Source: a virus. From it: a DNA stretch of 64,000 bases. The stretch lies in the IMG/VR virus record IMGVR_UViG_3300048060_000074. The stretch is one strand, 5' to 3'. Shown piece after piece: positions 5,273-57,004 of this stretch; within the stretch, counting starts at the first letter, position 1; every line of letters starts with the position of its first letter. A program made the translations under genes and the position numbers. The notes under the pieces are model-generated. The model saw nothing but the letters and a program-made list of their open reading frames with translations. It had not been told where the DNA came from and ran no database searches.

Positions 5273-5288
5273 TTTTACACGTGTAAAA
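5273..5288. promoter_or_regulatory. 16-bp palindrome TTTTACACGTGTAAAA (inside 26-bp perfect palindrome 5268-5293)
   Basis: exact consensus match; 17 bp upstream of the -35 hexamer. Confidence 0.9.
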
Positions 5289-5304
5289 TGGACACGTAGA
5301 TATG

Positions 5305-5736
5305 CTATCTGCATACGATTTTGTACTCGGGAACATCCCCGACATGTTCTAGCCTACATGTTGTCGTCAGGTCAATCTCGATCCACACAATTATGGATCT
5401 CGGGTTCGCGAGCAAGGTTTGCTCCACGAGTGCCCAGGTGTGTATCGGATTCCACCGGATATCCGGGTATTTGTTTGGCGACCACAAGTAAGAGCGTATT
5501 CGGCGGAGTCTCCCTGGGCCTGGACAATCCCATTCTTGTAGAATGTGCAGGCCGCCTACCTCTTTCCTTAGCGCCATTGCCGCCTCTGTGGAAGGCGCCT
5601 TGAATCGGACCCGCCCCGGTTCAATATAGTCGATTCCGATTCCCTTCGGCAGCATCGTTATAAAGGCCCGTGTGCGATCTAGCAGTTCTTTCAGCCAACA
5701 TATCTGGTCTATAGCTGCGTCGTGGTCGTATCCCAT
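5305..5736 (-). CDS. hypothetical protein
   Basis: ORF MGYDHDAAIDQ; start uncertain. Confidence 0.55.
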   Translation of the reverse strand: MGYDHDAAIDQICWLKELLDRTRAFITMLPKGIGIDYIEPGRVRFKAPSTEAAMALRKEVGGLHILQEWDCPGPGRLRRIRSYLWSPNKYPDIRWNPIHTWALVEQTLLANPRSIIVWIEIDLTTTCRLEHVGDVPEYKIVCR

Positions 5737-6512
5737 CCTGTTATTATCCTTTCCAGTTTTTCGAGCGTGACTCTCGTCCGCCCAGCATAAGTGGTGCTCG
5801 CCGCCTTGCATTGGCGGATCAGGTCCGCCACGACCTCCTCAATGTACGACTCTTCCCGCTCCGCCGTCCAGGCTTCTGTGTAGAAGCCATATGTGATGCC
5901 GCCAAGGCCGGCCCAGGCGATCTCCTGGCCGTCCAGCTTCATGGAAACCCTGATCCAGACGTATGACCAGTCGCCCCTGGAAAGGCCCGATACCTGCTCA
6001 TAGTCCTGACAAGCATAAAGCGCCTCGGCGGCTTTCCCCAGGGCTTCAGGGTCGTCTGTGTCTGGGCTGGTGATGTCGTACTTTTTCAGCTTCGGCGCGA
6101 CGTGTTTGTCAAAATGCTCGCGTGGGTTGTTTTCCTCGGCGTAGTGCTTCGCCATGCCGCACCACTCTCTGGCAGGTTTCCAATACTTGTACTCCTTCCT
6201 GCTATTCTGTGTAGGCAGCCACCTCGCCAACACCTCTGGGCCACCTTCGTCCCATGAATCCCAGGCGTCGTCAAACTCTATCTCTTCCTCTGGGGTTGGG
6301 TTGTCTACGTCGTGAAAGAAATCCTCGACTTGTGGCTCAGGCGGGTCGTCGCCGCGCAGAGTTCCATCTGTGCGGTCTACATACCAGGCATTCGGCGCCC
6401 TGTCTGTGTACTCGCCGAGGTGCGAAATGTCATAGTCGTAGTCGCAGTACTTTTCGATGACGAACTCGAGTTCGCCGTCGGTTCTTTTCTTTGTCTCAAA
6501 CGGGTCAAGCAT
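5709..6512 (-). CDS. acidic hypothetical protein
   Basis: 267 aa, GGAGG RBS. Confidence 0.75.
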   Translation of the reverse strand: MLDPFETKKRTDGELEFVIEKYCDYDYDISHLGEYTDRAPNAWYVDRTDGTLRGDDPPEPQVEDFFHDVDNPTPEEEIEFDDAWDSWDEGGPEVLARWLPTQNSRKEYKYWKPAREWCGMAKHYAEENNPREHFDKHVAPKLKKYDITSPDTDDPEALGKAAEALYACQDYEQVSGLSRGDWSYVWIRVSMKLDGQEIAWAGLGGITYGFYTEAWTAEREESYIEEVVADLIRQCKAASTTYAGRTRVTLEKLERIITGWDTTTTQL

Positions 6513-6524
6513 GTTTTTCCTCCA

Positions 6525-6540
6525 TTTTATACGTATAAAA
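6525..6540. promoter_or_regulatory. 16-bp palindrome TTTTATACGTATAAAA
   Basis: between stop at 6546 and RBS of 6512. Confidence 0.9.
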
Positions 6541-6545
6541 TCAAA

Positions 6546-7067
6546 CTAAAACGGCATCGCCTCCACAGACAGCACCCGCGTGGCTATCATAAGTGGCTTG
6601 CCGCACGACGGGCAATCTGCGTAAATTTTGCCGTGATTGAACATCACCTCTACTTCTACTGGGTTGTTCACGATGTCCGGGTCGGTGCCGAACCGGGCGA
6701 TCAGCTCGCCGCACTTGGGACAGACCAGGGCCTCTACGTTGCGGCACATTTCCAGAGCCGTGATGACTTGCCTGGCAGCATTCGGGGTGTGGCTTTCAGC
6801 CCACCACCAAAAATCCCCAAACTGTTCTCGTTTACAGCTATACTCGAATGTTCGGTAGTACGGGCATGTGGAGCATGCCATTGCGCCACCGGCCTCTTCC
6901 TGCGCAAAATCCATGTACACGGTGCATAACGGTCTATAGAAGAAGTTTGGCACCTTGCCAGGACACACCTCGATCCGTCGCCATAACTCTATCTCTAGAT
7001 CGATTGGGTCCTCTTTGTTGGCAAGGCGCCTGTCGATCTCTGCGCTAATCATAAGGATCATTGTCAT
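6546..7067 (-). CDS. Cys-rich zinc-binding protein
   Basis: CSTC, CPKC, CPSC motifs. Confidence 0.65.
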   Translation of the reverse strand: MTMILMISAEIDRRLANKEDPIDLEIELWRRIEVCPGKVPNFFYRPLCTVYMDFAQEEAGGAMACSTCPYYRTFEYSCKREQFGDFWWWAESHTPNAARQVITALEMCRNVEALVCPKCGELIARFGTDPDIVNNPVEVEVMFNHGKIYADCPSCGKPLMIATRVLSVEAMPF

Positions 7068-7314
7068 CTCCTTCTACTTCAAAAACGCCTGTGTTGGCAT
7101 CGCAGCACTCTCGTGATACGTGCTTGTCGATCTCTTCTTCGAGGCACCCACAGCAAAGCATGTTCGAGTCAATGGCCCGGAGGGGTGTCTCGCACTTCCA
7201 GCACGAGCCGTCGAACTCGTCCTCGAATAGTTCGTGGAGCTCGCTGGCGGGTATTTCGACCGTCACTTTTGTATAACGGCTACCGCTGACGCAAATCGTT
7301 ATTTCGTCCGACAT
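7045..7314 (-). CDS. small Cys-rich acidic protein
   Basis: GGAGG RBS; CWKC, CCGC. Confidence 0.6.
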   Translation of the reverse strand: MSDEITICVSGSRYTKVTVEIPASELHELFEDEFDGSCWKCETPLRAIDSNMLCCGCLEEEIDKHVSRECCDANTGVFEVEGDDNDPYD

Positions 7315-7316
7315 TG

Positions 7317-7559
7317 TTACCTCCTGTGCTTTTCTGGTGGAAACCAGCCGCCGGTCAGGGCCACCGCTTCCTTTTTGTAGAGTTTTGCGCCGTGTTCGGC
7401 GATATTCTTCGTATCGTACTCGGAGTCTTTCTTGGTGACGCCGATGTACGCGGCCCACTCACGGATCGTCCCGTCGGGGTTGTAGTCGACGACTGCGACG
7501 ACCTCGATCTGGCAGCCCGGTACATTTGACGTGAACACCCGTTCTTTGCCCACTTGCAT
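7317..7559 (-). CDS. hypothetical protein
   Basis: TAATG overlap with sbcD stop. Confidence 0.65.
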   Translation of the reverse strand: MQVGKERVFTSNVPGCQIEVVAVVDYNPDGTIREWAAYIGVTKKDSEYDTKNIAEHGAKLYKKEAVALTGGWFPPEKHRR

Positions 7560-8782
7560 TATCTTGCCTCCTGTTCTAGTAATTGTTCCATACGCTCTCT
7601 TAACTCTGCTATGCGTTCGGGCGTCGCCTGCTTGACCTGCAAATACCGCTCCAGCACATCGAGCGGCGCCAGTCCGGCGATATCGCTCTGGGTGCCAAGC
7701 CGCATCCTCTCCGACCGATCCACCTCGTGCGTAATGGACGCGATGTGGAAGGCCGGCTCTAGCGCCCGGCGCACCTTACTATCGTCGATGTGTACATTCA
7801 GGCCCGCCGAGACCTGAACGATGACCCGGACGACAGCGCCCTCGATGTGCTGTGTCTCGATCCTGCGCACGATTTGTGCCGTCGGGTCATCTTCGTCGGC
7901 CCTCATGCGGATGGTCACAAAGCGTCGGGTGTCCAGCTTGCGAAACGTCCAGGAACAGCCACCGCGCTCTACGTCGGCGATGACAAAGCCCTTGTCCTCT
8001 TTCTCCTCGCCAAAGTCGATCCGTTCGATGCTGCCGGAATAGACCACCGGCGGGGAGCGGCCCGGCTCCATTTCTTGGTGCTTATGGATGTGTCCCAAGG
8101 CCACGTAATCCCAGTGTGGATTCTTGAACAGGCTCAGAGGAACGATCATATCGTGGCCCAGCATGGTCGCGCGTTCCGAGCTATAGACTGCACCCTGAAC
8201 GGTGCCATGCGCGGCCAGGACGTGTGGCATGTCAGGCTTGAGTCGCTTTACAAAGCCCCCGTCGCCGGTAAAAAGGCTCTCCACCTTTGCCTGAAGCAGG
8301 GCCGTCGTTTCTGGCAGGCTCTTGTTCTTGTACTCTTTACGTGTGAGCAACGCGCTGCGCGCCACCCAGGGCAGCGTGGCAACCTGTACAGCGCCGTGGG
8401 CCGTTTCGATATCGAACACGGCGGGGCGGCTGGCAACGTAGACATTCTCCACACCCAGCGTATCGAATATTTCCACCGTGTGTGCCCGCCCTGTGGCGTT
8501 GAACGTATCGTGGTTGCCGGGAACCAGGACGGTCGGCAGGCCGGCCCGGGAAAGACGAAGAATGCGGCGTGCGAACTCTCGCTGGTAGGTCGAGGATGGA
8601 GACCGCGTCTTGTAGGCGTCCCCGGCGAAAATCACCAGGTCGGCTTCTGCTATCGCGAAATCGACCACCCGGTCTAGCGAATGCAGAAAATCCGCCGCCC
8701 TGGTAGACATCCCGGTGCGGGGATCCGGTCGGCCGTGCGTCTCTGTGCCGAGGTGGACGTCGGCGAAATGTAGCACCTTCAT
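7559..8782 (-). CDS. sbcD: SbcD/Mre11-family nuclease
   Basis: DVHLG, FAGD, GNHD, AHG, LGHIH, VYSGSIERIDFGE motifs. Confidence 0.95.
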   Translation of the reverse strand: MKVLHFADVHLGTETHGRPDPRTGMSTRAADFLHSLDRVVDFAIAEADLVIFAGDAYKTRSPSSTYQREFARRILRLSRAGLPTVLVPGNHDTFNATGRAHTVEIFDTLGVENVYVASRPAVFDIETAHGAVQVATLPWVARSALLTRKEYKNKSLPETTALLQAKVESLFTGDGGFVKRLKPDMPHVLAAHGTVQGAVYSSERATMLGHDMIVPLSLFKNPHWDYVALGHIHKHQEMEPGRSPPVVYSGSIERIDFGEEKEDKGFVIADVERGGCSWTFRKLDTRRFVTIRMRADEDDPTAQIVRRIETQHIEGAVVRVIVQVSAGLNVHIDDSKVRRALEPAFHIASITHEVDRSERMRLGTQSDIAGLAPLDVLERYLQVKQATPERIAELRERMEQLLEQEAR

Positions 8783-9072
8783 CTGGGGTGCTTTTCCAGG
8801 AACTCGAAAAGTGCCGGGTGGATCTTTCTTGCCTCAGCCTCGTTCACGCGTTTGCAAAGGCGGCTGATGTAGGCCATGAGTGCAATCGACCAGTGGCACT
8901 GCGAGTTTGGCTTGAACACATTTATTGCCCTGGCGCACTTGCGTGTTTTACCTAACAGCAAGCGACCTTCGGCCACCTCCGGCACGTACAGGGCGACGAC
9001 GTTGCCGGTTGGCTGGGCGTGCTTGCGCCAGCGATATTGGTCGTACTCTCGATAGAAGCGAAAGTTTTTCAT
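8779..9072 (-). CDS. hypothetical protein
   Basis: ATGA coupling on both sides. Confidence 0.65.
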   Translation of the reverse strand: MKNFRFYREYDQYRWRKHAQPTGNVVALYVPEVAEGRLLLGKTRKCARAINVFKPNSQCHWSIALMAYISRLCKRVNEAEARKIHPALFEFLEKHPR

Positions 9073-9356
9073 CCGACTGGCCTTTCCGGCGCATCGTAAA
9101 TAGATAATGCGCAGCCCACCCCCAGCCGAGGCAGATGTAAATTTATCCGAGGGCGCACAAGGTCTTGTCGACCGATCAGGTAGCCGATCAAAAATGCTTC
9201 ATCGCGCTGATCGTAAATTGGGTAAGCGATATAACTGGCTCTCAACTTCATTGCCCTTGCAAAGCCTGGGTCTGAAGCCACAGCCCAGAAGACAGGGACA
9301 TCGAGTCTTTTTACCCGGTGGTCAGTTACGCCTGTTCGAGTTATTCTTCCAGCCAT
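9069..9356 (-). CDS. hypothetical protein
   Basis: coupled ORF. Confidence 0.5.
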   Translation of the reverse strand: MAGRITRTGVTDHRVKRLDVPVFWAVASDPGFARAMKLRASYIAYPIYDQRDEAFLIGYLIGRQDLVRPRINLHLPRLGVGCALSIYDAPERPVG

Positions 9357-10369
9357 TCTTGGTTCATCCTTTCTATTTCTTTCTTAATCCTATTTCGCTC
9401 TTTGCGCAGGTGCGTCTTTTTCCACTCTGTCGCCAGCTCCCTGCACCCAGAGCACGACGGCTTTGTCCGTTCGGTGAATGTTTTGGCAAGCTCCAGGAGT
9501 AGCAGTGGGTCGTCGTATACGGTGCCGAATTCGCACCAGGACCCCTTGCAACAAACATCCATGAGCCTGCCGTTTGGCAGGTAGGACAAGCTGTCGGCGT
9601 TGCTATAGTCTCTGCACCCAACATCGTTGTGTCCGCCGATCCTGCCGCGCCCGTTAGGGATAACCGTTGCCCAACCTCGCCACGACGACCTTATACTTTC
9701 GACACAAATCCATGGGTCGTCCCCGTCTGGCTCTGGCGGCCTCTGGCAAACTTCCTCCTCGTAGATGTCGCAACAGTCCTCCTCGCACTTTGGGCACCAT
9801 TCACTGGCTCTGTACGTATCACACTCTCCACAGTACCATTTGGTCTTGTAGAAAACGCCGTCCTCGTCGCGCTCCCAGAGGTTACTGAGCGCCCATTCAA
9901 GGCGTTGGCCTTGCAATCCCTCTGGCCTAAACGCATCGTGAAACTGGTCGTTGCTTATGCGCACAGAGAATGGCAGTCCGTCCCTGGTCTCCAGTCCATG
10001 GCCATCCGGGTCGACGTAGCACCGGACGATGTCCATAAACCTGCGGATAGTAGACGGCTTGTTCATCCACCAGCCGTTGGTGGTCATTTCTACGCCAACG
10101 TCCCATCGCATCACCTGGGATAGAATGTGCTCAAACCTATCCAGGTTCAGCGTCGGCTCACCACCTACAAGGTTGATCCCGGCATGGACGCCAAGTTCTT
10201 GTAGACTATCGATCTGGCCTTTCACAGCCCACAGTACCTTGTCGCTCATCCAGCCCTTGAACTCGGTGCCGCACTCGTACATACAGTGATCGCACCTGAA
10301 GTTACAGCGGCGGGTGAGAAGTAGGCTGATCGTCACTCTTTCTTCTCGGTGTTTCTCGATATCTATCAC
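9341..10369 (-). CDS. radical SAM protein
   Basis: CNFRCDHC (CxxxCxxC), GGEP, additional C-terminal Cys. Confidence 0.9.
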   Translation of the reverse strand: MIDIEKHREERVTISLLLTRRCNFRCDHCMYECGTEFKGWMSDKVLWAVKGQIDSLQELGVHAGINLVGGEPTLNLDRFEHILSQVMRWDVGVEMTTNGWWMNKPSTIRRFMDIVRCYVDPDGHGLETRDGLPFSVRISNDQFHDAFRPEGLQGQRLEWALSNLWERDEDGVFYKTKWYCGECDTYRASEWCPKCEEDCCDIYEEEVCQRPPEPDGDDPWICVESIRSSWRGWATVIPNGRGRIGGHNDVGCRDYSNADSLSYLPNGRLMDVCCKGSWCEFGTVYDDPLLLLELAKTFTERTKPSCSGCRELATEWKKTHLRKERNRIKKEIERMNQEWLEE

Positions 10370-10626
10370 CTAAAAACTCCTATGGTATCGCGGACCATCC
10401 TAAGAAGTCCGCTTCCGTGCTGTATCAGAGCGTCGAACCCTGACAGTTCAAACTCTATCAGGTAGGTGTCTCCGTCGCACCTCAGCGCGCCGGTGCTGAC
10501 GCCCGGCATGCCGCTGGTGCGGAGGATACATTCAGCATACGCATCCGCGACGATCTTGAAAAACGCCGCCTCGCCCTTGCTGCCGTTGACGATTCGGACG
10601 GTGATCCCGTGTATGTCGGCGTTCAC
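10366..10626 (-). CDS. hypothetical protein
   Basis: GGAGG RBS, GTG at 10626. Confidence 0.55.
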   Translation of the reverse strand: MNADIHGITVRIVNGSKGEAAFFKIVADAYAECILRTSGMPGVSTGALRCDGDTYLIEFELSGFDALIQHGSGLLRMVRDTIGVFR

Positions 10627-10763
10627 AGGAGCACCTCCGAATCCTCGTTGAGCACCCGAGCCAGGGTGTCCCAGGTGATGGTCCCGACGACCACCCACTT
10701 CTCATGCAGGCGGACGTCGGGTAGTTCATCTCTCACCTTTTCAGGTGTCCATTCAAATTTCAT
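10623..10763 (-). CDS. small hypothetical protein (46 aa, not in ORF track)
   Basis: MKFEWTPEKVRDELPDVRLHEKW...; stop overlaps next GTG. Confidence 0.5.
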   Translation of the reverse strand: MKFEWTPEKVRDELPDVRLHEKWVVVGTITWDTLARVLNEDSEVLL

Positions 10764-10977
10764 CTCTTATCCTCCTTAGCTCTTTTACGCCCGAGCAAAC
10801 CTTGCACGTTGCCATGTTTACGAACTGTCGGTTTGGCCCTGGGCAAGCCCAGAACGAGCAAGGCACTGTCACGAGGCTGTTGATTACTTTTTGCAGGTCC
10901 TTTTTAAGTTGGGTTCTCGACTTTTTAGGTGTCCGTTTAGAATTGGTCTTTTTAGGTGTCCATTTAGAATTGGTCAT
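10753..10977 (-). CDS. small basic protein with C-terminal Cys motif
   Basis: GGAGG RBS; TNSK(W/R)TPKK duplicated; CSFWAC...CKVC. Confidence 0.55.
   Translation of the reverse strand: MTNSKWTPKKTNSKRTPKKSRTQLKKDLQKVINSLVTVPCSFWACPGPNRQFVNMATCKVCSGVKELRRIRDEI
10921..10974. repeat. 27-bp tandem duplication
   Basis: CTTTTTAGGTGTCC(G/A)TTTAGAATTGGT x2. Confidence 0.9.
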
Positions 10978-11311
10978 AGTCCACCTCCACGCCAAAGGAT
11001 TTCATTACAGCCTGCCGCAGGGACTCCCGCACCTTTTCCAGCGCGTCGTCGATACCGGCGTCGAGGCGGTCGAACTTTATGGCAACCAAAGCGGCGGCCT
11101 CCTTGGAGATTTCCTTGTCGATGGCATCCGCGGCGACCTGGACAAAGTTGGCAACATCGTCGATCTCTTGGCCCTCGACAATGATACGAAAGTCAGGATT
11201 TCCGGCCGGCGCACTCTTGAACACCTCGCGGTCATCCACCGAGCACAGCATTTCAACCAAAAGCCACTGCGCCGTTTGTGACATCTCATCAAATCTATAG
11301 TTTCTGGTCAT
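10964..11311 (-). CDS. hypothetical protein
   Basis: GGAGG RBS. Confidence 0.7.
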   Translation of the reverse strand: MTRNYRFDEMSQTAQWLLVEMLCSVDDREVFKSAPAGNPDFRIIVEGQEIDDVANFVQVAADAIDKEISKEAAALVAIKFDRLDAGIDDALEKVRESLRQAVMKSFGVEVDYDQF

Positions 11312-11328
11312 GCTAACCTCCCTTCTCG

Positions 11329-11344
11329 TTTTATACGTGTAAAA
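11329..11344. promoter_or_regulatory. 16-bp palindrome TTTTATACGTGTAAAA
   Basis: abuts stop at 11345, precedes RBS of 11311. Confidence 0.9.
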
Positions 11345-14853: not shown

Positions 14854-14869
14854 TTTTACACGTATAAAA
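14854..14869. promoter_or_regulatory. 16-bp palindrome TTTTACACGTATAAAA
   Basis: gene boundary, directly upstream of RBS of 14838. Confidence 0.9.
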
Positions 14870-16312: not shown

Positions 16313-16328
16313 TTTTACACGTATAAAA
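16313..16328. promoter_or_regulatory. 16-bp palindrome TTTTACACGTATAAAA
   Basis: abuts stop at 16329, precedes RBS of 16297. Confidence 0.9.
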
Positions 16329-18891: not shown

Positions 18892-18907
18892 TTTTACACG
18901 TATAAAA
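18892..18907. promoter_or_regulatory. 16-bp palindrome TTTTACACGTATAAAA
   Basis: directly upstream of RBS of 18882. Confidence 0.9.
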
Positions 18908-20667: not shown

Positions 20668-21034
20668 TGATGGTCCTTTCTATGTTAGCGCGACGCCGCT
20701 ATTCGTAATGCATCCTAGAAAATATGACAAAGGGTGTCTTGTTTGACGACCGATTGCTAGCCGATGTTGTATTTATGGACTTTTGGAATTCTAAAAGTCT
20801 AAAAGTCCATATGGGGTGGGTGTCGAAATTTGGCAGGGTTTCTTGCGCCCCGTTTTCCCGCCCTTTGCCCAAAGCGATCTAAATTCTCTTTTTCTCCTAA
20901 CCGATCCGGTTCAAAAAGCATCGAAATACACGGGTCGTGTCTGTGTTTTGCGATTGCGATCTAACCGATCCGGTCAGTCGCTTTGCACGTGTAAAATCAG
21001 CACAAAAGCACCATGGGTGTCTGTGCTGTTGTGT

Positions 21035-23300: not shown

Positions 23301-23316
23301 TTTTACACGTATAAAA
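23301..23316. promoter_or_regulatory. 16-bp palindrome TTTTACACGTATAAAA
   Basis: in the long non-coding region. Confidence 0.9.
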
Positions 23317-23387
23317 TGTGAAATTCTGTGTAGATAGCAGTATTACATTCCCGGAACGTTGCACATACCCCTACCTGCGTCGCGCAC

Positions 23388-23417
23388 TTGGGATAAGTTG
23401 GGATAAACTTGGGATAA
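23388..23417. repeat. three phased direct repeats of TTGGGATAA
   Basis: copies start at 23388, 23398 and 23409. Confidence 0.85.
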
Positions 23418-23462: not shown

Positions 23463-23549
23463 AACAAAAAAGGGAGAGCATCCGAGTGTCCGCGTGCGGG
23501 CATCCATTCCCGCGCTCTCGTTCTCTCCCTTTTCCCCTTAGAGGAAGGT
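23463..23549 (-). ncRNA. putative ~90-nt small RNA
   Basis: follows promoter 23556-23584; AAGGGAGAG/CTCTCCCTT stem with inner GCGGG/CCCGC stem and a U-tract. Confidence 0.45.
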
Positions 23550-23555
23550 ACTCTT

Positions 23556-23584
23556 ATCTTACTACAAACGAGGCAAATTGTCAA
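23556..23584 (-). promoter_or_regulatory. sigma70-type promoter
   Basis: TTGACA-17-TAAGAT. Confidence 0.7.
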
Positions 23585-31729: not shown

Positions 31730-31745
31730 TTTTATACGTGTAAAA
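31730..31745. promoter_or_regulatory. 16-bp palindrome TTTTATACGTGTAAAA
   Basis: after stop at 31758, before GAGGAG RBS of a small ORF starting at 31716. Confidence 0.9.
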
Positions 31746-32197: not shown

Positions 32198-32226
32198 ATT
32201 ATACTCGTTTTCCTGACATTTGTCAA
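32198..32226 (-). promoter_or_regulatory. consensus sigma70 promoter
   Basis: TTGACA-17-TATAAT. Confidence 0.9.
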
Positions 32227-34723: not shown

Positions 34724-36085
34724 TCACACCACTGCCTCCGGGTGATCCTGCCACTGCCCGGACCCGATGAATTGCTTTAGTTTGAGCACGCCGTCCACGA
34801 GAGCACAGCCTATTTTGGAATTCCCGCCCTTCTTGGCCGGGCCAACGAGCACCCCCGCGGCGTAATAGTTTCTGTAGGCATGTCTGATGTCCGCCTGAAT
34901 GACGTCTCTGGTCTTCCCGTCAACTTGCCTCGTCATCGAGCCCCTGACGTTCTTAAAGGCGTCCGTCTGTCCGGTCGCCTTGTCGCCGACTCGGCGGTTT
35001 GCCGCAATCTCTTTCCACAACCGATATCGCCAGTCGGAAAAGTCGGATATCTCGGCGGCTACCAACTCGTCTATCTCGCCTGGCTGGACGAGTAGTGATT
35101 TGCCTCTTTTTGGACGGGACATTTCGTCAAGTATGAACTCGCCCTTGGCTACCGGCAATTTTTTTGGCTTGTAACCAAGAACCACATCGGCCTGTGCTGC
35201 TGTTCGTACCCGGAAACATATTCGCCTGTCAAAGTTGATAGTGATCGTTTTTGGAATAATGTCAAACCGTGGATATTGGGTCGCGTAAACCAGGTGAATC
35301 TTTGCCCCTGCGGCCTGCATGGCAAGAGTTTTCATGGCCTGGATGCCCGGGTTTCGGTGTTCGTTACCTTCCACTGTGATTTTTCCGACCTCATCTATAA
35401 TAAGAATTGTGGGCCTGCGATCCGACTTTCTCTCGAATCTCTTCTGGGCCTCAATTCTTAGATCGACTAGCAACTTCATTGCCTCGTTCATGTCCCGAAC
35501 GTAGACACCAAAAGCCCCAAACTTATACAATTCCTCGTCCATGTCTGCTTTCAGGTCTATAATGTAGATGATCGGTCGCTGCGCTTTTGGTTTTGCGCAG
35601 AGCTGTATCAAGATAGATAAGATTTCATTGGTTTTACCCGTTCTGGTAAGACCGGCGACGAGGGTGTGCCCATCGCCCAAGTCGACTGTGATCGGGCGCC
35701 CCTTTCGGTCGTATCCCAAAATAACCGAGAGGGAACTTTTGGACAAATTCGGGTGCGTGGCTGCTACGTCAAGGCTGCGGGCAGCCACCGGCGGGCCCTG
35801 CGGCGCGGCCCTCTTGTCTTCCTCGATCTGCTTTTGCCACTTGCCGATGCGCTTCACCGTCTTCACGGCACAAACCACGACGAGGATGATTATCGTCGCG
35901 ATTATGTACTGAACCTTGGACTTGAACGTGCCGTTCCAGGCAACAGCGAGCAGGAACATTGCTGCTGGAATACCGAAGACCCAGCGCCAGCCAATATCCC
36001 TGGCGATGTCTCCTGGCAAAGCGACGAGTGCAACGATGGCCGCCGCAAGCAATACCCACGAGCCGAACGCTATGGACTTTTTCAT
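34724..36085 (-). CDS. FtsK/SpoIIIE-family ATPase with N-terminal TM helices
   Basis: three hydrophobic segments; HTLVAGLTRTGKT, IIDLK, LIIDEV, IHLVYATQYP, RRICFRV, GEFIL. Confidence 0.85.
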   Translation of the reverse strand: MKKSIAFGSWVLLAAAIVALVALPGDIARDIGWRWVFGIPAAMFLLAVAWNGTFKSKVQYIIATIIILVVVCAVKTVKRIGKWQKQIEEDKRAAPQGPPVAARSLDVAATHPNLSKSSLSVILGYDRKGRPITVDLGDGHTLVAGLTRTGKTNEILSILIQLCAKPKAQRPIIYIIDLKADMDEELYKFGAFGVYVRDMNEAMKLLVDLRIEAQKRFERKSDRRPTILIIDEVGKITVEGNEHRNPGIQAMKTLAMQAAGAKIHLVYATQYPRFDIIPKTITINFDRRICFRVRTAAQADVVLGYKPKKLPVAKGEFILDEMSRPKRGKSLLVQPGEIDELVAAEISDFSDWRYRLWKEIAANRRVGDKATGQTDAFKNVRGSMTRQVDGKTRDVIQADIRHAYRNYYAAGVLVGPAKKGGNSKIGCALVDGVLKLKQFIGSGQWQDHPEAVV

Positions 36086-36702
36086 TGCGGGTTCCACAAC
36101 CATTTGTTGAGCATCTGTTTCACAATTTCCTTTTCCATCTCTGCCGGTATCACATCGCGCGAAGTCCAGTCCCGGAGATTCTGAACGAGGAATTGATCCT
36201 CTGTCTCAGGCTCTAGCTGCTTGAACGTGATGGGGGCCTTCTTGATCTCCTCCATGAGCCTTAGCGGTACACGCTCTCCCTCAAAGTACACGTGCTTGTT
36301 TGAGCTCGCTTTTACACGTGTAAAACCCAAGTACTTTTCGTGGATCCAGCGTTTCTCTTCGGTCGCAATCGCGTTGATGTCGTCCCCCTTGTTGTGCTCG
36401 CACAGTATACCTTTAAGGCGACGCAATGTCGATTTTCCTCTGGGATAATCCACGATTATCCACCACTCTGCATTCCACCTGGCGATCTCCATTGCCAGGG
36501 GGATTGCGAGAATGAGGAGTGGGGGGATCGCCATTGCATACAGGGGGCGATAGAGGAGGCCAAGCCCTACCGAGACAGATAGCGAAATCGCAAGCCACCA
36601 AACAAAATCTGCCACTTCTTCGACTAGCTCGAACCAGTGGCGGCGGGTGGCGTATCTTAGCTTAGTGCCCTCAGGAGGGCGCCAGTTCTTGGGCAGCTTC
36701 AT
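36082..36702 (-). CDS. membrane protein, PH-domain-like C-terminus
   Basis: two TM helices followed by a beta-rich soluble part; start uncertain. Confidence 0.5.
   Translation of the reverse strand: MKLPKNWRPPEGTKLRYATRRHWFELVEEVADFVWWLAISLSVSVGLGLLYRPLYAMAIPPLLILAIPLAMEIARWNAEWWIIVDYPRGKSTLRRLKGILCEHNKGDDINAIATEEKRWIHEKYLGFTRVKASSNKHVYFEGERVPLRLMEEIKKAPITFKQLEPETEDQFLVQNLRDWTSRDVIPAEMEKEIVKQMLNKWLWNPQ
36310..36325. promoter_or_regulatory. 16-bp palindrome TTTTACACGTGTAAAA (intragenic)
   Basis: exact match inside a coding frame (GFTRVK). Confidence 0.8.
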
Positions 36703-36973
36703 GATAAATCCTTCGGTAGATTTCGAGAACTCGGCGATATCCCAACTTGAAAAAGATACGCCCATCGCGGATTTCAATGCCTCGGTTGAGGCTGATGCTC
36801 TCGTGTGCCCACTGCTTGGATCGTTCACAGATCATTGCGATCTGTTGGTAGGTAGGGCATTTTCCGCCTGCCATATCTTTGTACATTGCGGTTGCATAGG
36901 TGATTCTGTCGCTGCCGCTCAGAGAGCGGAAAACGCTATCGTCCTGTACCGCCTTGGCGATTCTTTCAAACAT
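36671..36973 (-). CDS. small HTH-like protein
   Basis: CPTYQQIAMICERSKQWAHESI. Confidence 0.5.
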   Translation of the reverse strand: MFERIAKAVQDDSVFRSLSGSDRITYATAMYKDMAGGKCPTYQQIAMICERSKQWAHESISLNRGIEIRDGRIFFKLGYRRVLEIYRRIYHEAAQELAPS

Positions 36974-37328
36974 AGATCGACCTCTGAAATACCCACAAAA
37001 TTCCGACGTGGCGACCGCTGAGGGTGTACACGTCACGTCGCTTGGCGAACTTGCGAATCATGCCGTTTCTCCACAGGTTGTGGAGGATTGCCTGAACGCT
37101 TGTAAATTGTGCCGCTGCCGGATGGAGCGACGGCAGCCCAATCATCCAAAGCGTGCGAATCATGCCTGTTTTGTCTCTCAGCAACTCGTATACTTCCTGT
37201 CTCTTGTAGCCGAGGGACGGATCGACGAGGCCATCCAGCCGCTCGATTGCCATCCTCGACGCCATGAGGTAGGTCTCCATACTTGTCGGGTACAGTTCAA
37301 GGTACGTCGGCTTCATCACTTCTGGCAT
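36966..37328 (-). CDS. hypothetical protein
   Basis: MPEVMKPTYLE. Confidence 0.55.
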   Translation of the reverse strand: MPEVMKPTYLELYPTSMETYLMASRMAIERLDGLVDPSLGYKRQEVYELLRDKTGMIRTLWMIGLPSLHPAAAQFTSVQAILHNLWRNGMIRKFAKRRDVYTLSGRHVGILWVFQRSIYV

Positions 37329-38854: not shown

Positions 38855-38883
38855 AGTATACCACCCTTCCTGACATTTGTCAA
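38855..38883 (-). promoter_or_regulatory. leftward sigma70 promoter of the divergent pair
   Basis: TTGACA-17-TATACT. Confidence 0.85.
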
Positions 38884-38900: not shown

Positions 38901-38916
38901 TTTTATACGTATAAAA
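38901..38916. promoter_or_regulatory. 16-bp palindrome TTTTATACGTATAAAA centred between divergent promoters
   Basis: 17 bp from each -35 hexamer. Confidence 0.92.
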
Positions 38917-38933: not shown

Positions 38934-38962
38934 TTGACAAACGTCCTGATCTGTGATAGACT
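38934..38962 (+). promoter_or_regulatory. rightward sigma70 promoter of the divergent pair
   Basis: TTGACA-17-TAGACT. Confidence 0.85.
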
Positions 38963-39928: not shown

Positions 39929-39944
39929 TTTTACACGTGTAAAA
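39929..39944. promoter_or_regulatory. 16-bp palindrome TTTTACACGTGTAAAA
   Basis: between stop at 39921 and RBS of 39955. Confidence 0.9.
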
Positions 39945-46703: not shown

Positions 46704-46719
46704 TTTTATACGTATAAAA
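46704..46719. promoter_or_regulatory. 16-bp palindrome TTTTATACGTATAAAA
   Basis: abuts stop at 46703, at the head of the glycan island. Confidence 0.9.
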
Positions 46720-47557: not shown

Positions 47558-47559
47558 AA

Positions 47560-51411: not shown

Positions 51412-52003
51412 AATCATAGAACACAGTACGTTTGTTGATATAGACAAGATCATGTACACCTCCAGAGGCGTACATGGAGATAGCTGCACATCGGACGACT
51501 TGCTTCGTTTGTTGACAGTCAGGTACGGTGGGCATATCAAATTAGAACTCGGCCCTGGCCGCATAGGCGGAGCGCCGTGGGGGAAAGCGCCGTGGGCGAC
51601 GATTGGGCTCAATCATAGTTCCGATCCGCACTCCGACATTTATTATGACTTGAGCCGTGGGATCCCGCTTCCTGACAAATCTGTGGACGAGATACATTCA
51701 AATCAAGTTCTTGAGCACCTAAGAGACCCCATTAAGATCATGAACGAGCAATGGAGAGTGCTCAAGCCAGGCGGGTTTGTTTACGCCTGCGTGCCGCATT
51801 ATCTGGCGCCGTCGGCGTGTGGCGATCCAACTCACAGAACATTCTGGAGCGAAACATCGTTTCAGTACTACTGCTTACGCGATGATGGAACGCCGTTTGT
51901 AGACAGGTTTTCCGATTATGGAATCAAATGCAGGTTCATTTTGGAGGAGCATACATGGCAACGAATGGTGCACGTGACTGCGAAATTGCGCAAGCCCCTG
52001 TAG
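51404..52003 (+). CDS. class I SAM methyltransferase
   Basis: LELGPG, DLSRGIPLPDKSVD, VLEHL, RVLKPGG, GDPTH. Confidence 0.85.
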   Translation: MSRIIEHSTFVDIDKIMYTSRGVHGDSCTSDDLLRLLTVRYGGHIKLELGPGRIGGAPWGKAPWATIGLNHSSDPHSDIYYDLSRGIPLPDKSVDEIHSNQVLEHLRDPIKIMNEQWRVLKPGGFVYACVPHYLAPSACGDPTHRTFWSETSFQYYCLRDDGTPFVDRFSDYGIKCRFILEEHTWQRMVHVTAKLRKPL

Positions 52004-52590
52004 CTGTGCAAGATGGCAGATTTGCCGGAATACAGAAGCACGAGCTTGAATGGTGGACTAACTACAACTACATGCCGTGGGGTGAGTGGACGCAGTACCA
52101 CTCAAAACTTCATATGCATCTGCGACCATTCAGGTCTGTCGCCGACGTAGGAAGTGGGCCGGTGCCGTTTTTCTTGTCCGGTGTCATCTTCTATGAAGAC
52201 GCCATTGCAATCGACCCGTTGATAAGCAAGTACTTGTCGATTGAGCGATACAAGCAGTATCACGACAAGGAATTTGGCTGTTTTTCCAGGATAGAGGATG
52301 TCTGCGAGAAGATGTTCGATGGCGTGTTTTGTCTCAACACTATCGACCACGTTCGAGACCCAACCGCTTTCATCTCTGAACTGGATCGCATTCTTGAGCC
52401 TGGTGGCAGGTTGTATGTCTGTGTGGATGTAGAAAAGCCGCCGGACCCGCTTCATCCTCATATGATCCACGCCGACTGGCTCGACGAGCAGTTTTCATTT
52501 TACACGTATAAAACGCTCTTGCGGCAGGTCGTGCCGAGCTTCAAGTTCCAGAATGACCTTTATTGGTTTGTTGGAGATAAGGAGGAATAG
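51955..52590 (+). CDS. class I SAM methyltransferase
   Basis: GGAGGAG RBS; ADVGSGP, AIDPL, FDGVFCLNTIDH, RILEPGG. Confidence 0.85.
   Translation: MATNGARDCEIAQAPVAVQDGRFAGIQKHELEWWTNYNYMPWGEWTQYHSKLHMHLRPFRSVADVGSGPVPFFLSGVIFYEDAIAIDPLISKYLSIERYKQYHDKEFGCFSRIEDVCEKMFDGVFCLNTIDHVRDPTAFISELDRILEPGGRLYVCVDVEKPPDPLHPHMIHADWLDEQFSFYTYKTLLRQVVPSFKFQNDLYWFVGDKEE
52498..52513. promoter_or_regulatory. 16-bp palindrome TTTTACACGTATAAAA (intragenic)
   Basis: exact match inside a coding frame (FYTYK). Confidence 0.8.
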
Positions 52591-53555
52591 TGGGAGCAAA
52601 GTACGCGCATATAAGCCTTTTCAAGACCAGGGATGCTGCCGGTAGACACCTAGGGGGCGTGGAGCAGTTTGGCATGTATCTCAAACGGGCGATTCCAGAG
52701 ATGAGTCTATTTTCCTGGCCCGATTACCCAGAGTTCGGGGAGAATGGGCATCTCCAGGATTATGAGAAGGCAGAGATGTTGAACACCTGGCTGCTCAAGT
52801 CGGGCCTCGTTGACGAAAACACCATTGTCATCACCGATGGTTACTGGGCCAATGGCCTTCAGGGCAAGGTGGCAAGGCTGATATCTGTCGTCCATGGTTC
52901 GTACTGGGGACGATACATGATCCACCAGGTGTTCAAATGGGGTGATGAGGTCATTGGTATGAATCATGTCAACGCCCAGTTCGACATCTGGGAAGATGAC
53001 CGCGTGGAAGTGGTCTGTGTGTCACAGGCCAGCGCGGACGAGCTTGGGGAGTTTGGCGCTGGGTGCGAGTGCGAGGTGACGGTCATCGAGCACGGAATAG
53101 ACCTTGAGAGATTTCGGCCTCTTCCCGATGCTAGCCACGGCCTTTGGATGCACGGCGCCACCTCCGGGCGCAAGGGATATGACGTCATCGTTCGTCTTGC
53201 CGCAATGGGAAAGCATTACATCGAACCAATGAACGAGCGTAGTGGTGTCCCGGAGAACAAGGTTGCCAGGTTGAATGAGGCAAAATGCCTGCTTGCGCCT
53301 ACACGGCACGAGGGCAACTCGTATCTACTGCTAGAAGCCCTGGCATGTGGGGTCCCTCTCATTACGTACTACACCGGCCTGGCCGAGAGCATGGACGAAC
53401 GGGTAGGTATCGTGACTGATAACCTAGATCCATACAACTTTGCAAGGTTGATGGACAGCTTTGACCCATCGTTGTATGACCCGAGAGGGTGGGCCGAAGA
53501 GTTCGCGTCCTTTGATCGTTTTGCAATACCGTGGAGGGTATACCTTGATATCTAA
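52590..53555 (+). CDS. GT4 glycosyltransferase
   Basis: IEHGID, RKGY, RHEGNSYLLLEALACGVP. Confidence 0.9.
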   Translation: MGAKYAHISLFKTRDAAGRHLGGVEQFGMYLKRAIPEMSLFSWPDYPEFGENGHLQDYEKAEMLNTWLLKSGLVDENTIVITDGYWANGLQGKVARLISVVHGSYWGRYMIHQVFKWGDEVIGMNHVNAQFDIWEDDRVEVVCVSQASADELGEFGAGCECEVTVIEHGIDLERFRPLPDASHGLWMHGATSGRKGYDVIVRLAAMGKHYIEPMNERSGVPENKVARLNEAKCLLAPTRHEGNSYLLLEALACGVPLITYYTGLAESMDERVGIVTDNLDPYNFARLMDSFDPSLYDPRGWAEEFASFDRFAIPWRVYLDI

Positions 53556-56500
53556 CTTGCTCGGACATGATTTCTTTGCGTTGCCGAGAATACTGGTTCA
53601 TTGTCCTACCAAGGACAGGGACTCAGTTCTAGGACGGATGCTTGCCAGCCTGATAAAGCAAACCTACAGAAACTTTGACGTCGTAGTTTACAACGATGGC
53701 AGCCAGCAGGTGGGCACTACACAGTCTACAGACTATAATCTTGCTTGCTTGAAAGCGGGCGGGATGCGCGAGGTTTGGCTGGAAGAAGGCAGCCACATTA
53801 GCCAGGCCCACAACCACAACCTGGCACTCTACGATCCTGCGTTCCGCGACTACAAGTACTTTGTCCGCATGGACGACGATGTGCTCTTGAACGCATTCGC
53901 CCTGGAGCGGATGCTGAATACGATCATTCGGCATGGTGCGGCAGCCGTTGGTGGGTTGTGGTTTGAGAATGAATTTGCAGCCGAGAGCTTGTACGACAGG
54001 ATGGTTGCAGAGGTAGGCATTGCTCCTCCGCTCGACGGCAAGTGCGGGCCGTTTAACTCGAATTGGCAACAGAGGGTTTACCACAGCGTCGACGAGTTGA
54101 TGAGAGTCGAGCATGTCTACTCGGTGTGCATCTACGATACGGAGAAAATGCGGCAGGCTGGTGGTTGGCCTGAAGTCTATGGCCGTGGCGTGGCGCACGG
54201 CGAGGAAACTGACGGAACGTTCCGCTTGCATTTGACGGGCGAGGATCTGTACATCAATCCTTGCATCACCGGAGAGCACCTTCGGGCAGGCAGCGGGGGA
54301 ATTCGGTCCGTTGCCAATTTGCAGCAGATACAAGCTCACGACCTCCGCAAGTGGCAGATACGGCTGCCGGATATCAAGAGGATCAATTTCAAGCCGACTG
54401 TCGCCGTGGAGTGCAGGCATTCCTACGGGCTTGGTGGTGCAGAGCGGCTGTTCTACCACACTGTTCACCTGTTGCAGCAGAGCGGCAAGTTCGAGGTTGT
54501 CCACCCGATTTTCCCATCGGTGCACTTTTCGCCGGACGAAGTGATGGACGCCTTCGGCTTCAGTTATGAGGATGCTGCGCCGCTTGACGAATATGACGTG
54601 CTCATTGTCATAGGGCACGAGCCACAACACATCACCAAGGCCAAGCATAAGATATTCTACTGCCTGTTCCCAATTCCGACCGTTAGTCGGGCCGACCTGA
54701 TCGACTTTGACCTGATCCTTGGAATCAGCGGATACACAGCGGAATGGATTCGAGAGTGGTGGAAGTACAATGTTGGCTATATCTATCCTCCAGTGGAGCC
54801 AATAGGTTTCGACCCAGAAGAGAAAGAAAACATCATTCTGATGGTGGGCAGGTGCGTTCCGCACAAAAACCCCTTGTGGCTGATGCAAAAGTTCATGCAA
54901 TGGAAATTCCACGGGTGGGAGCTTCATTTCGTTTCTGCAACGTGCATTGCCGACCACGCGGCGTATGAGGCGGACGTGCTTGAATATGCTGCCAAGCATG
55001 ACAACATTGTGGTTCACCAGAACATTTCTATCAATGGGGTGGAGATGCTGTACCGTCGGTCCAAAATCTTATGGGCGGCGAATGGAATGCTAGGGAAATT
55101 GGCGCAACAGGCCGAGCATTTTGGGTACACGCCCGTCGAGGCTTGGGGCGCTGGATGTATCCCAATCGTGTACAATCGTGGCGGACATAAAGAGACGGTT
55201 GATTCACCGTTCAGGTGGTCTACTGAGTCAGAACTTCTGATCGCGACAGAAATCTCGATGGGCTCCTTCGGGAAGATCGATAACGTCGTCGACATGTCCA
55301 GGTTCGACCCGGATGAGTACGCGTTGGTTTGGGAGCAATACATCAGGCGCGTGAATGCGATGGCTCTGGAACTGCCTATGGCAGAAGTCGTCGAGGTCGA
55401 GGCGCGCGCGCCGCACATCGCGATGATTACGGATAGCCCCTACTTCCCCGAGCACGGGACAGGGGTTAGCAGTGGATTTGGAGTCGTCGCAGGACAGATC
55501 GCCAGGCGGTTCCTTGAGGAAAAGTACAGGCTGTCCATTTTGGGAATGATGGATCACGTGATACCAAAGTCCTCTCAGCCATTGCCGTTCGACTTATTCC
55601 CGACGATAGGCGATCCAGAGGCGCTACGAATTATCCCCATGTTCTTGAACTGGGCCAAGCCATACGATGTCATTTTTATGCTGTACGACCCAGGTGGATT
55701 ATTGCCCCGTATCGAGACCTTCCAGAATACCGGGATGGCACCGGAGCCTGTCATTGCCTATTTCCCGGTCGAGGGTGCAAACACGATCAATGCAAGTATT
55801 CCCGGGCTCATTGAAAGGGTGCATTTCCCAGTCGTGTACTGCGAGTCCGCCAAGCGGCTGATTCAACAGTATGTATCGTGTGACGAGATTTACGTCGCGC
55901 CTCACGGAATCGACCATGCCAAGTTTGGACCGCCCCCTGCGCGCGACAGAAACCGCGTGAGGGAATTGGTAGACTGGGACAATCGGTTTATCGTGATGGC
56001 GGTTGGCACGAACAAAAGAGTGAAGAACCACCCTGTGCTCATCAAAGCGATACGTATCTTGATGGGAAGAGGATACGACGACATCTCACTGTACTTGCAT
56101 ACCACAAAAGACCCGACAAGTCCATACCTTGCCGGGTGGAATCTAAAGTCGGTGATCGACCAGGAGTCTGCTAGGTCTGGGCTGGAAGTCGCCAGGCATA
56201 TCTACATGCCGATCCACGACCCGTACCATGGCGCGGCATACAAGTGGGACGATCTGGATATCTGGCGGATGACCAGGCCGTCGACCGCTGATGAGCGCAA
56301 GGGGCTATTCAACGCCCTGGACTTTATCACCCGCTACCAGATCGCCGATTTGTACGTCGATATCAGCGGGGCAGAGGGGTTTGGCCTTCCGCCGCTAGAG
56401 GCCGCTGCGTGTGGAGTTCCAGTGGTCAGCATAGATGATGGAATGGTTCGATCAGAGATTCATTCCAAGTATTGCCACATGATCGAGCCGGACTTCTGGA

Positions 56501-56706
56501 CTGAATGGCACACCGGCACAATGCTTGCCGGGGTGTTCCCAGAAGAACTAGCAGACGAGATCGAGGATCTCTATCACGACCGAAAGTTCATGCACAAGTT
56601 CGATGCTGCACAGGCCGGGATCATGGAAGACCTGCCTTGGCGAAAATCGACCGATGTTTTTGTCGGCCTGGTGGAGAAGGCGGTTGCCATATCAAGAACG
56701 ACCTGA
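53545..56706 (+). CDS. three-domain glycosyltransferase (GT2 + GT4 + GT4)
   Basis: YFVRMDDD; EHFGYTPVEAWGAGC; EGFGLPPLEAAACGVP; TTG start after GGAGG. Confidence 0.88.
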   Translation: MISNLLGHDFFALPRILVHCPTKDRDSVLGRMLASLIKQTYRNFDVVVYNDGSQQVGTTQSTDYNLACLKAGGMREVWLEEGSHISQAHNHNLALYDPAFRDYKYFVRMDDDVLLNAFALERMLNTIIRHGAAAVGGLWFENEFAAESLYDRMVAEVGIAPPLDGKCGPFNSNWQQRVYHSVDELMRVEHVYSVCIYDTEKMRQAGGWPEVYGRGVAHGEETDGTFRLHLTGEDLYINPCITGEHLRAGSGGIRSVANLQQIQAHDLRKWQIRLPDIKRINFKPTVAVECRHSYGLGGAERLFYHTVHLLQQSGKFEVVHPIFPSVHFSPDEVMDAFGFSYEDAAPLDEYDVLIVIGHEPQHITKAKHKIFYCLFPIPTVSRADLIDFDLILGISGYTAEWIREWWKYNVGYIYPPVEPIGFDPEEKENIILMVGRCVPHKNPLWLMQKFMQWKFHGWELHFVSATCIADHAAYEADVLEYAAKHDNIVVHQNISINGVEMLYRRSKILWAANGMLGKLAQQAEHFGYTPVEAWGAGCIPIVYNRGGHKETVDSPFRWSTESELLIATEISMGSFGKIDNVVDMSRFDPDEYALVWEQYIRRVNAMALELPMAEVVEVEARAPHIAMITDSPYFPEHGTGVSSGFGVVAGQIARRFLEEKYRLSILGMMDHVIPKSSQPLPFDLFPTIGDPEALRIIPMFLNWAKPYDVIFMLYDPGGLLPRIETFQNTGMAPEPVIAYFPVEGANTINASIPGLIERVHFPVVYCESAKRLIQQYVSCDEIYVAPHGIDHAKFGPPPARDRNRVRELVDWDNRFIVMAVGTNKRVKNHPVLIKAIRILMGRGYDDISLYLHTTKDPTSPYLAGWNLKSVIDQESARSGLEVARHIYMPIHDPYHGAAYKWDDLDIWRMTRPSTADERKGLFNALDFITRYQIADLYVDISGAEGFGLPPLEAAACGVPVVSIDDGMVRSEIHSKYCHMIEPDFWTEWHTGTMLAGVFPEELADEIEDLYHDRKFMHKFDAAQAGIMEDLPWRKSTDVFVGLVEKAVAISRTT

Positions 56707-56731
56707 CGAGAGCGATATTGTAGAAACTGTT

Positions 56732-56887
56732 GTGAGCACATGCAACAAGCCTGACTGGATTAGGTGCCCTTACTGCCAGCGCCGATTTGGCTATGCTGAG
56801 ACTGTACTGACGGCGATCATAGTTTTCTATTGCACCAGATGCAAAATGTCTTTTCGGTTCATCCTTGGGGTAAATGTAGAGTACTAA
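56732..56887 (+). CDS. Mu Com-like zinc-finger protein
   Basis: IRCPYCQRRF...IVFYCTRCK; start uncertain. Confidence 0.5.
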   Translation: MSTCNKPDWIRCPYCQRRFGYAETVLTAIIVFYCTRCKMSFRFILGVNVEY

Positions 56888-56890
56888 TCA

Positions 56891-56919
56891 TTGACTCCAG
56901 ACACATAATGTGGTAGAAT
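56891..56919 (+). promoter_or_regulatory. sigma70-type promoter
   Basis: TTGACT-17-TAGAAT. Confidence 0.75.
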
Positions 56920-56949
56920 AGCATATAGAAGAGCCTGAAGGGGAAACCG

Positions 56950-56982
56950 AGGGGCCGCAAGATATCTTGCGGCCCCTTTTTT
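56950..56982 (+). terminator. intrinsic terminator
   Basis: 28-bp perfect palindrome AGGGGCCGCAAGATATCTTGCGGCCCCT followed by a T-run. Confidence 0.85.
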
Positions 56983-56988
56983 GTTTCA

Positions 56989-57004
56989 TTTTACACGTAT
57001 AAAA
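56989..57004. promoter_or_regulatory. 16-bp palindrome TTTTACACGTATAAAA
   Basis: between the terminator and the 1213-aa gene. Confidence 0.9.

Follow-up and report, generated by a model that had tools for sequence, protein, structure and literature searches.

What reads a palindrome that recurs along a whole phage genome? The question is raised by a 64,000-nucleotide stretch of viral DNA (IMG/VR record IMGVR_UViG_3300048060_000074; the window, meaning this stretch at its full length), which carries many copies of the 16-bp palindrome TTTTAYACGTRTAAAA. The stretch belongs to an uncultivated sediment phage of ~89 kb (contigs of 89,394 and 89,481 bp), whose identical sequence is present in several sediment metagenomes, and whose left arm is transcribed leftward from ~38.9 kb and right arm rightward. 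We tentatively favour the reading that the palindromes form a network of docking sites of the KorB/Noc kind, and that the binder would be an orphan ParB-family protein encoded in the window (gene 3678-4691, product P0001); our confidence in this falls a little short of even.

Distribution and context of the palindrome

A pattern scan of the whole window recovered all 14 exact copies of TTTTAYACGTRTAAAA that had been predicted, and no match was found in 100 dinucleotide-preserving shuffles (0 expected against 14 seen), in agreement with the earlier estimate of far fewer than one copy by chance. Since the G+C content of the window is ~54%, an A/T-rich 16-mer is still less probable by chance. Allowing up to three mismatches added only two degenerate sites, at 20981 and 33028, indicating that the motif family is sharply bounded. 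Beyond the limits of the window, the genome has three more exact copies, one on contig L110 (~2.6 kb left of the window) and two on contig L117 (equivalent to window positions 65685 and 70366), for a total of at least 17 copies in the ~79 kb seen of the ~89-kb genome. The copies are spaced more evenly than random placement would give (coefficient of variation 0.56, P about 0.013-0.019).

Fourteen of the 16 motif positions, including the central ACGT, are invariant across all copies, and only positions 6 and 11 vary. The combinations at these two positions (three C/G, three T/A and eight mixed) are those of independent draws, and the pyrimidine (Y) positions are evenly split, with 14 C and 14 T over 28 half-sites. 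The original prediction gave a match to the canonical bacterial parS site at 12 of 16 positions; direct comparison confirmed this for the CACGTG variant of the motif, which has the CACGTG core in common with parS. The copies are as follows; the last three carry contig coordinates.

5273-5288: 17 bp upstream of the -35 box of the leftward RNase H/ParB-like operon promoter (centre at about -61.5), 16 nt past the stop codon of the upstream gene
6525-6540: left arm, junction of stop codon (TGA), motif, Shine-Dalgarno (SD) sequence and ATG
11329-11344: left arm, junction of stop codon, motif, SD and ATG
14854-14869: left arm, junction of stop codon, motif, SD and ATG
16313-16328: left arm, junction of stop codon, motif, SD and ATG
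18892-18907: left arm, intercistronic, immediately 5' of SD and ATG
23301-23316: non-coding, low-GC region of ~700 nt, ~240 nt downstream of the promoter at 23584-23556 and ~160 nt past the promoter-leader-terminator unit; ~70 nt from three tandem TTATCCCAAST repeats
31730-31745: left arm, intercistronic before SD and ATG, ~450 bp downstream of the promoter at 32226-32198
36310-36325: within the open reading frame (ORF) 36082-36828 (minus strand), which is conserved in the relatives L111 and G001
38901-38916: midpoint of the gap separating the divergent early promoters, with 17 bp to either -35 box; transcribed by neither promoter
39929-39944: right arm, between small genes one and two; the motif core lies at the comparable junction in the relative L112
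46704-46719: directly 3' of a TGA stop codon, 5' of a sulfotransferase gene
52498-52513: within the methyltransferase ORF 51955-52590 (plus strand), encoding F-Y-T-Y-K, a stretch poorly conserved among orthologues
56989-57004: in cassette R1, 5 nt past a terminator T-tract and 41 nt before the gene of a 1213-residue protein, at a synteny break (glycan island)
L110, 7210: between the last left-arm gene and a terminator common to the convergent gene
L117, 13459: in cassette R2, behind a terminator T-tract as for 56989 (5-12 nt over these two copies)
L117, 18140: in an intergenic gap of 258 nt

Eight copies (6525, 11329, 14854, 16313, 18892, 31730, 39929 and 46704) fill minimal gaps between genes, in the order stop codon (often a TGA abutting the motif), motif, 1-4 nt, SD and start codon. 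Together with 56989 these make up the nine copies at gene boundaries of the original prediction, and its two copies inside coding frames are 36310 and 52498, in ORFs that relatives conserve and whose products align with their orthologues across the site. In ten of the 17 copies, 10-28 nt separate the end of the motif from a start codon, and the motif immediately precedes the SD.

The copies are also tied to promoters, and the following elements were located in the window.

5227-5255, minus strand: sigma70-type promoter of the RNase H/ParB-like operon, TTGACA-17-TAGAAT, 11/12, with a TG extension
38855-38883, minus strand: leftward early promoter, TTGACA-17-TATACT
38934-38962, plus strand: rightward early promoter, TTGACA-17-TAGACT
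56891-56983, plus strand: cassette R1, promoter TTGACT-17-TAGAAT, leader of ~55 nt and intrinsic terminator (stem 56951-56976 and T-tract), followed by the motif
23465-23584, minus strand: promoter TTGACA-17-TAAGAT, then a short leader and a terminator whose end is CCCTTTTTTGTT; copy 23301 lies downstream
32198-32226, minus strand: perfect-consensus promoter belonging to this family (TTGACAAATGTCAGGAA), with a terminator upstream in place of the motif, an internal contrast

At three strong promoters the site lies exactly 17 bp upstream of the -35 box (centre at about -61.5); four more promoters have copies 70-450 bp downstream, and the remainder are intercistronic or intragenic. By a hand count, a copy is present within 250 bp of six of the ten strongest sigma70-type promoters, where ~11% would be expected from the density of sites. 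As had been proposed, the promoter of the operon that contains the ParB-family gene (5255-5227) carries a copy, 17 bp upstream of the -35 box. Four early promoters (5227-5255, 32198-32226, 38855-38883 and 38934-38962) have a further element in common, TTGACAAAYGTC(AGGAA), whose inverted repeat TGAC-N4-GTCA lies over the -35 box and may serve a second regulator as its operator.

Cassette R1 has a paralogue, R2, outside the window, and the two can be aligned along their whole length, in the order TTGACx-17-TAxAAT, AAGAGCCT, stem, CCCTTTTTTGTT, TCA, motif and YGGAG. R1 occupies window positions 56885-57010 and R2 positions 13341-13480 of L117 (window-equivalent about 65567-65706). In both, AAGAGCCT lies near the 5' end of the ~55-nt leader and a strong intrinsic terminator follows. 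The cassettes precede late genes, one a mucin-like glycan gene and the other a head gene, and their layout is reminiscent of the lambdoid PR'-tR' units that need an antiterminator.

Both halves of the palindrome are equally conserved, its centre is invariant and its length fixed, which is the signature of a dimeric DNA-binding protein. The observations favour recognition as DNA and not as RNA, by a dimeric binder, and the proposal of promoter-linked, DNA-level sites thus held up. Most probably the sites dock one dimeric protein that the phage itself encodes and that is linked to the control of transcription. An mRNA element placed 5' of the SD (a translational operator, a processing site or an S1 enhancer) would fit the ten SD-adjacent copies, and a copy of the motif core in L112 is likewise placed, but in a genome this tightly packed, where genes otherwise overlap, any 16-bp insert would be expected to lie beside an SD. 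The predicted RNA hairpin is essentially unstable (minimum free energy 0 to -1.7 kcal/mol), and no Rfam family matched in a scan of the window. Positions 6 and 11 do not covary, so that four copies (a quarter) would carry a C-A mismatch in the sense RNA. One copy (38901) is transcribed by neither flanking promoter, one lies at the end of a convergent gene and two are intragenic. We therefore consider an RNA-level role very improbable.

When IMG/VR was scanned for the motif, only single chance copies were found, and the same was true of the Joint Genome Institute (JGI) metagenomes among the matches listed, with the exception of contig L167 (JABUBO010003327.1). This unrelated 5.6-kb contig of 39% G+C carries three copies of YTTTACACGTGTAAAA within 1.4 kb (3962-5336) in AT-rich intergenic DNA, and its ORFs are orphans that belong to no family. 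Restriction avoidance was considered separately and rejected, YACGTR (the BsaAI site) being present 59 times against 61.5 expected.

The ParB-like protein P0001 and the relatives of the phage

The gene proposed to encode the binder lies towards the left end of the window, in an operon with an RNase H gene.

3678-4691, minus strand: P0001, orphan and very divergent ParB-family gene of 337 residues with a GDRRIEAA box and a ParB-type helix-turn-helix (HTH); candidate binder
4684-5163, minus strand: RNase H gene, first in the operon, overlapping the start of the ParB-like gene by 8 nt

Several lines of evidence bear out the assignment of P0001 as a true, though very divergent, member of the ParB family. 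PHROG 4715, annotated as 'ParB-like partition protein', matched P0001 with E = 1.6e-7. A HMMER (phmmer) search of 1.8e9 representative proteins gave four matches at E < 1e-3 (about 1e-4), all of them proteins with ParB_N and HTH_ParB domains, and in an alignment with these four the arginine box (box II, GDRRIEAA) retains the invariant G68, R70, R71 and A74; box I is poorly alignable. Neighbours of P0001 in the ESM Atlas are all ParB_N/HTH_ParB clusters, mostly viral (0.96 for features, TM score of 0.5-0.56 for structure over residues 1-230). The best match in the PDB for P0001 alone is Noc, though a weak one (E = 0.36). Only the HTH is confidently modelled (residues 120-200, predicted local distance difference test (pLDDT) 70-82), and C-terminal helices are predicted at 277-325, the region of the dimerisation domain, where pLDDT is 30-65.

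A word-index homologue search with P0001 returned only the protein itself, and tblastn against 50,697 phage records gave no match. As the full HMMER search yielded only four weak ParB matches, there is no 'ParB clade' in which co-occurrence with the motif could be followed. The nearest homologue, P0003 (36% identity), is encoded on a 1.8-kb contig (L113; ENA ERZ841748), where three GACAACC-AGTAA-GTTGTC inverted repeats lie upstream of it at ~500-600. This triplet looks like a site cluster belonging to P0003 itself.

The original prediction also assigned P0001 a part in partition. Every frame of the window, L110 and L117, together ~79 of 89 kb, proved free of a KGGxGK[ST] motif, the sole P-loop there belongs to the FtsK-like gene, and Pfam and PHROG scans revealed no ParA family. 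In view of the missing ParA-type Walker box, P0001 is an orphan ParB and a classical partition role for it is unsupported. No sign of plasmid maintenance or lysogeny was seen. Searches retrieved no homologues of the FtsK-like protein. Among ~95 ORFs scanned against Pfam or PHROGs, nearly all of them orphans, P0001 was the sole recognisable sequence-specific DNA binder.

The phage encodes a T4-like large terminase (TerL), a Mu-type portal, SbcD-like, RuvC-like and FtsK-like proteins and RNase H. Its terminase is only ~25% identical to T4-like terminases; megablast found no close relatives among isolated phages, and two scans found no terminase relatives in bacterial and archaeal species genomes. 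We compared it within a clade defined by terminase homologues, whose synteny comprises FtsK-like, RuvC, a divergent switch, terminase, Mu-type portal and a glycan-modification island. Three complete IMG/VR genomes of this clade (G001-G003, the records behind L240-L242; 35-41% TerL identity) contain no copy of the motif, and no HTH_ParB, ParB_N or P0001 homologue was found in them. The contigs L111, L114 and L115 likewise contain no copies. In G001, homologues of the RNase H gene and of gene 1695-2594 lie ~0.5 kb apart, whereas the corresponding interval in the window is ~2 kb and includes the ParB-like gene. The tally thus runs as predicted, with one genome carrying both motif and ParB and three complete genomes carrying neither; this agreement is not specific, as any lineage-specific gene would fit. 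The relative L112 (47% TerL identity, right arm only assembled) has two copies of TTTACACGTGTAAA in 22.5 kb against ~3e-4 expected, one of which sits, like its counterpart in the window, at the stop/SD junction that separates the first right-arm gene from the second.

A second dispersed palindrome, GTCCA-N4-6-TGGAC, was found in the relatives, with the following numbers of copies.

G001: 8
G002: 4
G003: 12, mostly of the form GAGTCCA...TGGACTC
L111 (21.6 kb): 3

By chance a complete genome would have about 0.5 copies and the 21.6-kb L111 ~0.14; the single copy in the window is at chance level. Because their spacers vary and their positions are mostly intragenic, these sites look like a different kind of element.

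Taken by family, by the parS-like site, by the copy at its own operon and by a gene gain that coincides with a swap of palindromes, P0001 is plausibly the best named candidate for the binder. Under the favoured reading, dimers of P0001 would load at the 16-bp sites and might close there as cytidine triphosphate (CTP) clamps and slide a short distance. Sigma70 promoters in the neighbourhood would come under their control, as would the late cassettes gated by terminators, and with sites so evenly spaced no part of the chromosome would be out of reach. We infer that P0001 would bind the sites and clamp or slide there, and likewise the direction of its effect on transcription. We consider rather unlikely the stronger version in which the orphan, diverged ParB-type clamp would be the master governor of transcription in this virus, with ~20 evenly spaced sites. 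The clamp would then sit at -61.5 of early promoters and directly behind the leader terminators of the paralogous late cassettes, coating of the whole chromosome would be coupled to the early/late switch, and the ParB system would have replaced an older, ParB-independent GTCCA-N4-6-TGGAC system still present in the relatives.

Evidence against P0001 and rival explanations

Several observations weigh against P0001 as the binder. Its match to Pfam HTH_ParB (E = 1e-3, 19.6 bits) is under the cut-off of 22.6 bits, and Pfam ParB_N was undetected at E <= 0.01. Box III reads DNLHAE in place of ENLxRE, with N113 retained and the E and R altered, and this degeneracy makes CTPase activity uncertain. The AlphaFold model is poor overall (pLDDT 50) and insufficient for a fold search. 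The promoters are near-consensus, so that -61.5 is an odd position for a site, whether it serves to activate or to occlude directly. The motif core is retained in L112, and the 1.8e9-protein library contains no P0001 homologue from other samples (for L112 this concerns the right arm only). G001-G003 and L111 have dispersed GTCCA-N4-6-TGGAC sites and no ParB gene, indicating that the clade can run palindrome arrays without ParB; a binder other than ParB is for this reason a serious rival. Since most ORFs are orphans, an unrecognised regulator could be that binder.

We regard it as nearly as likely as the P0001 reading that the sites are operators or roadblocks for such a different dimeric regulator encoded by the phage, working in the manner of stoperators, and that the ParB-like protein has an unrelated job. 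Over 85% of ORFs match no family, the majority of sites occupy short gaps between cistrons as stoperators do (PMC9283540, PMC6550527), and two lie directly behind terminators, where a roadblock would be placed. The palindrome of the ParB-less relatives lies partly at stop-SD junctions and beside -35-like boxes (G001:36540 and G001:51024); these palindromes are, however, of the other kind described above. No candidate for such a regulator was found, and no integrase, repressor or immunity repressor family was seen among the ~95 ORFs, most of them orphans. Stoperators are asymmetric and oriented, whereas the sites here are symmetric. The winged-helix-like early protein encoded at 36966-37265 has a nearly identical recognition helix in the window and L111 despite their different palindromes, which makes it an improbable determinant of specificity. 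Very improbable is a binder of the host (a nucleoid protein, for instance, or a global regulator) that the phage has recruited. A site centred at about -61.5 is in the classic class I position of CRP/FNR-type activators, but the promoters here are near-consensus already. TACAnnTGTA is the core box of CopY/BlaI-type repressors (PMC7253601), but half of the half-sites here read TATA and not TACA. The unrelated, AT-rich L167 with its three YTTTACACGTGTAAAA copies would fit a host factor; the closest relatives, from similar habitats, are entirely without the motif.

Equally improbable is that the motif signals through DNA structure, as a cruciform or hairpin used when the DNA is replicated, nicked, packaged or recombined, or that it is a scar left by a mobile cassette and bounds gene modules. 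In favour of this are the perfect symmetry of the AT-rich motif, the RuvC-like, SbcD-like and FtsK-like proteins of the phage, the loops in the palindromes of the relatives, which vary as in structure-based elements, and the position of copy 56989 at the synteny break of the glycan island. Against this, the central ACGT is invariant and the changes in the arms are non-compensatory. The junction at 46704 is present in L111 and L114 with the same two genes and without the motif, which argues against recombination scars, so that the recombination boundaries offered as an alternative in the original prediction are disfavoured. Contigs of the same phage from four other sediment runs had no variants, joints or ends at the sites (contigs only; weak evidence). 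Least probable, in our view, is a promoter function of the palindrome itself, as a TATAAA-like -10 box recognised by an RNA polymerase that the phage has modified. RTAAAA does resemble a -10 box or the T4 late motif, and two copies stand between a terminator and a gene start with no space for another promoter, but at most junctions a transcript begun ~7 nt downstream would start within or beyond the SD, each pair of terminator and motif has a strong sigma70 promoter ahead of it already, and a palindrome would fire in both directions. No RNA run contains the phage.

Known systems of dispersed sites and neighbouring features

Dispersed palindromic operators are already known from KorB/OB, the N15 SopB sites IR1-IR4 and Noc/NBS, and dispersed operators also from the stoperators. 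KorB of the IncP plasmid RK2 is a CTP-dependent clamp that loads at the 16-bp OB site, and slides as far as ~1.5 kb, and that KorA captures at promoters (PMC11790492). The likeness to our system lies in a ParB-family protein with many dispersed 16-bp palindromes, both near promoters and far from them, and with the operon of the regulator itself among the targets; this layout of a KorB-type regulon was found here. The TGACAAAYGTCA element over the -35 box of four promoters could act as a KorA operator, and the conserved TGAC-N4-GTCA there could be the operator of a KorA-like partner; no KorA-like protein was identified in the phage. The differences are that RK2 is a plasmid, that no ParA/IncC partner was found here, that the site lies 17 bp from the -35 box where OB classes are 'proximal' at 4-10 bp or 'distal' at >=45 bp (PMC11790492), that many sites are intercistronic or behind terminators, and that P0001, the candidate binder, is very divergent with a degenerate box III.

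The phage-plasmid N15, as described in the passage of PMC7205306 that cites Ravin and Lane (1999; PMC94163), has dispersed SopB centromere sites, IR1-IR4, and by that account resembles our phage in combining a phage genome, a ParB-family protein and palindromes that are scattered and not clustered. N15 has SopA, is a plasmid prophage and carries four sites, whereas here no ParA was found and there are at least 17 sites. Noc of Bacillus subtilis (PDB 7NFU, 7NG0, 7OL9) is likewise an orphan ParB-family protein with dispersed parS-related palindromes of 14-16 bp (NBS), but it tethers DNA to the membrane by an N-terminal amphipathic helix and blocks division, of which there is no indication here. 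The stoperators of Cluster A mycobacteriophages (L5 gp71, TipsytheTRex; PMC9283540, PMC6550527) are short sites found throughout the genome, in intergenic gaps of both arms and at the early promoter. They differ in being sites of 13-14 bp, asymmetric and oriented with transcription, bound by a monomeric immunity repressor in temperate phages; the motif here is palindromic save for its two independently varying positions, and the scanned ORFs include no recognisable repressor or integrase.

Particular to this phage are the orphan and very divergent ParB, the exact -61.5 spacing at three promoters, the paralogous late cassettes of promoter, leader, terminator and motif, and the replacement of one palindrome by another within a clade. 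If P0001 binds the sites, the phage would offer a compact natural case of viral KorB-style long-range control without a partition ATPase. Orphan ParB-like genes are common in phages, as the mostly viral Atlas neighbours illustrate. Different dispersed palindromes with and without ParB in one clade give a direct handle on the swapping of such networks, and the sites, being short, exact and promoter-linked, are easily tested by reporter assay in a laboratory host.

The following observations concern neighbouring features. The 99-residue protein encoded at 36966-37265 (minus strand) is conserved in L111 and G002 and combines an LHNLWRNG(M/L)I(R/K)K helix with a beta-wing; its Atlas leads are MarR/HTH_5/DsrD-like folds, at only 0.88-0.89. 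The three tandem 11-bp TTATCCCAAST repeats occupy window positions 23386-23417 (minus strand), are DnaA-box-like and lie beside the promoter-terminator unit and copy 23301; the region is a possible replication origin. Neither TTATCCCAAST nor a further side motif, GYAGATAKC, was significantly enriched genome-wide. In the relative L112/L116, the interval from the glycan genes to the head genes, which in the window phage is the place of the glycan island, contains a gene for a TROVE/Ro60-like protein with a vWA domain (L116:13994-15574). One of the last right-arm genes of the window phage itself, a short way beyond the left end of the window (L110:7830-8174), codes for a small protein with a PAS domain.

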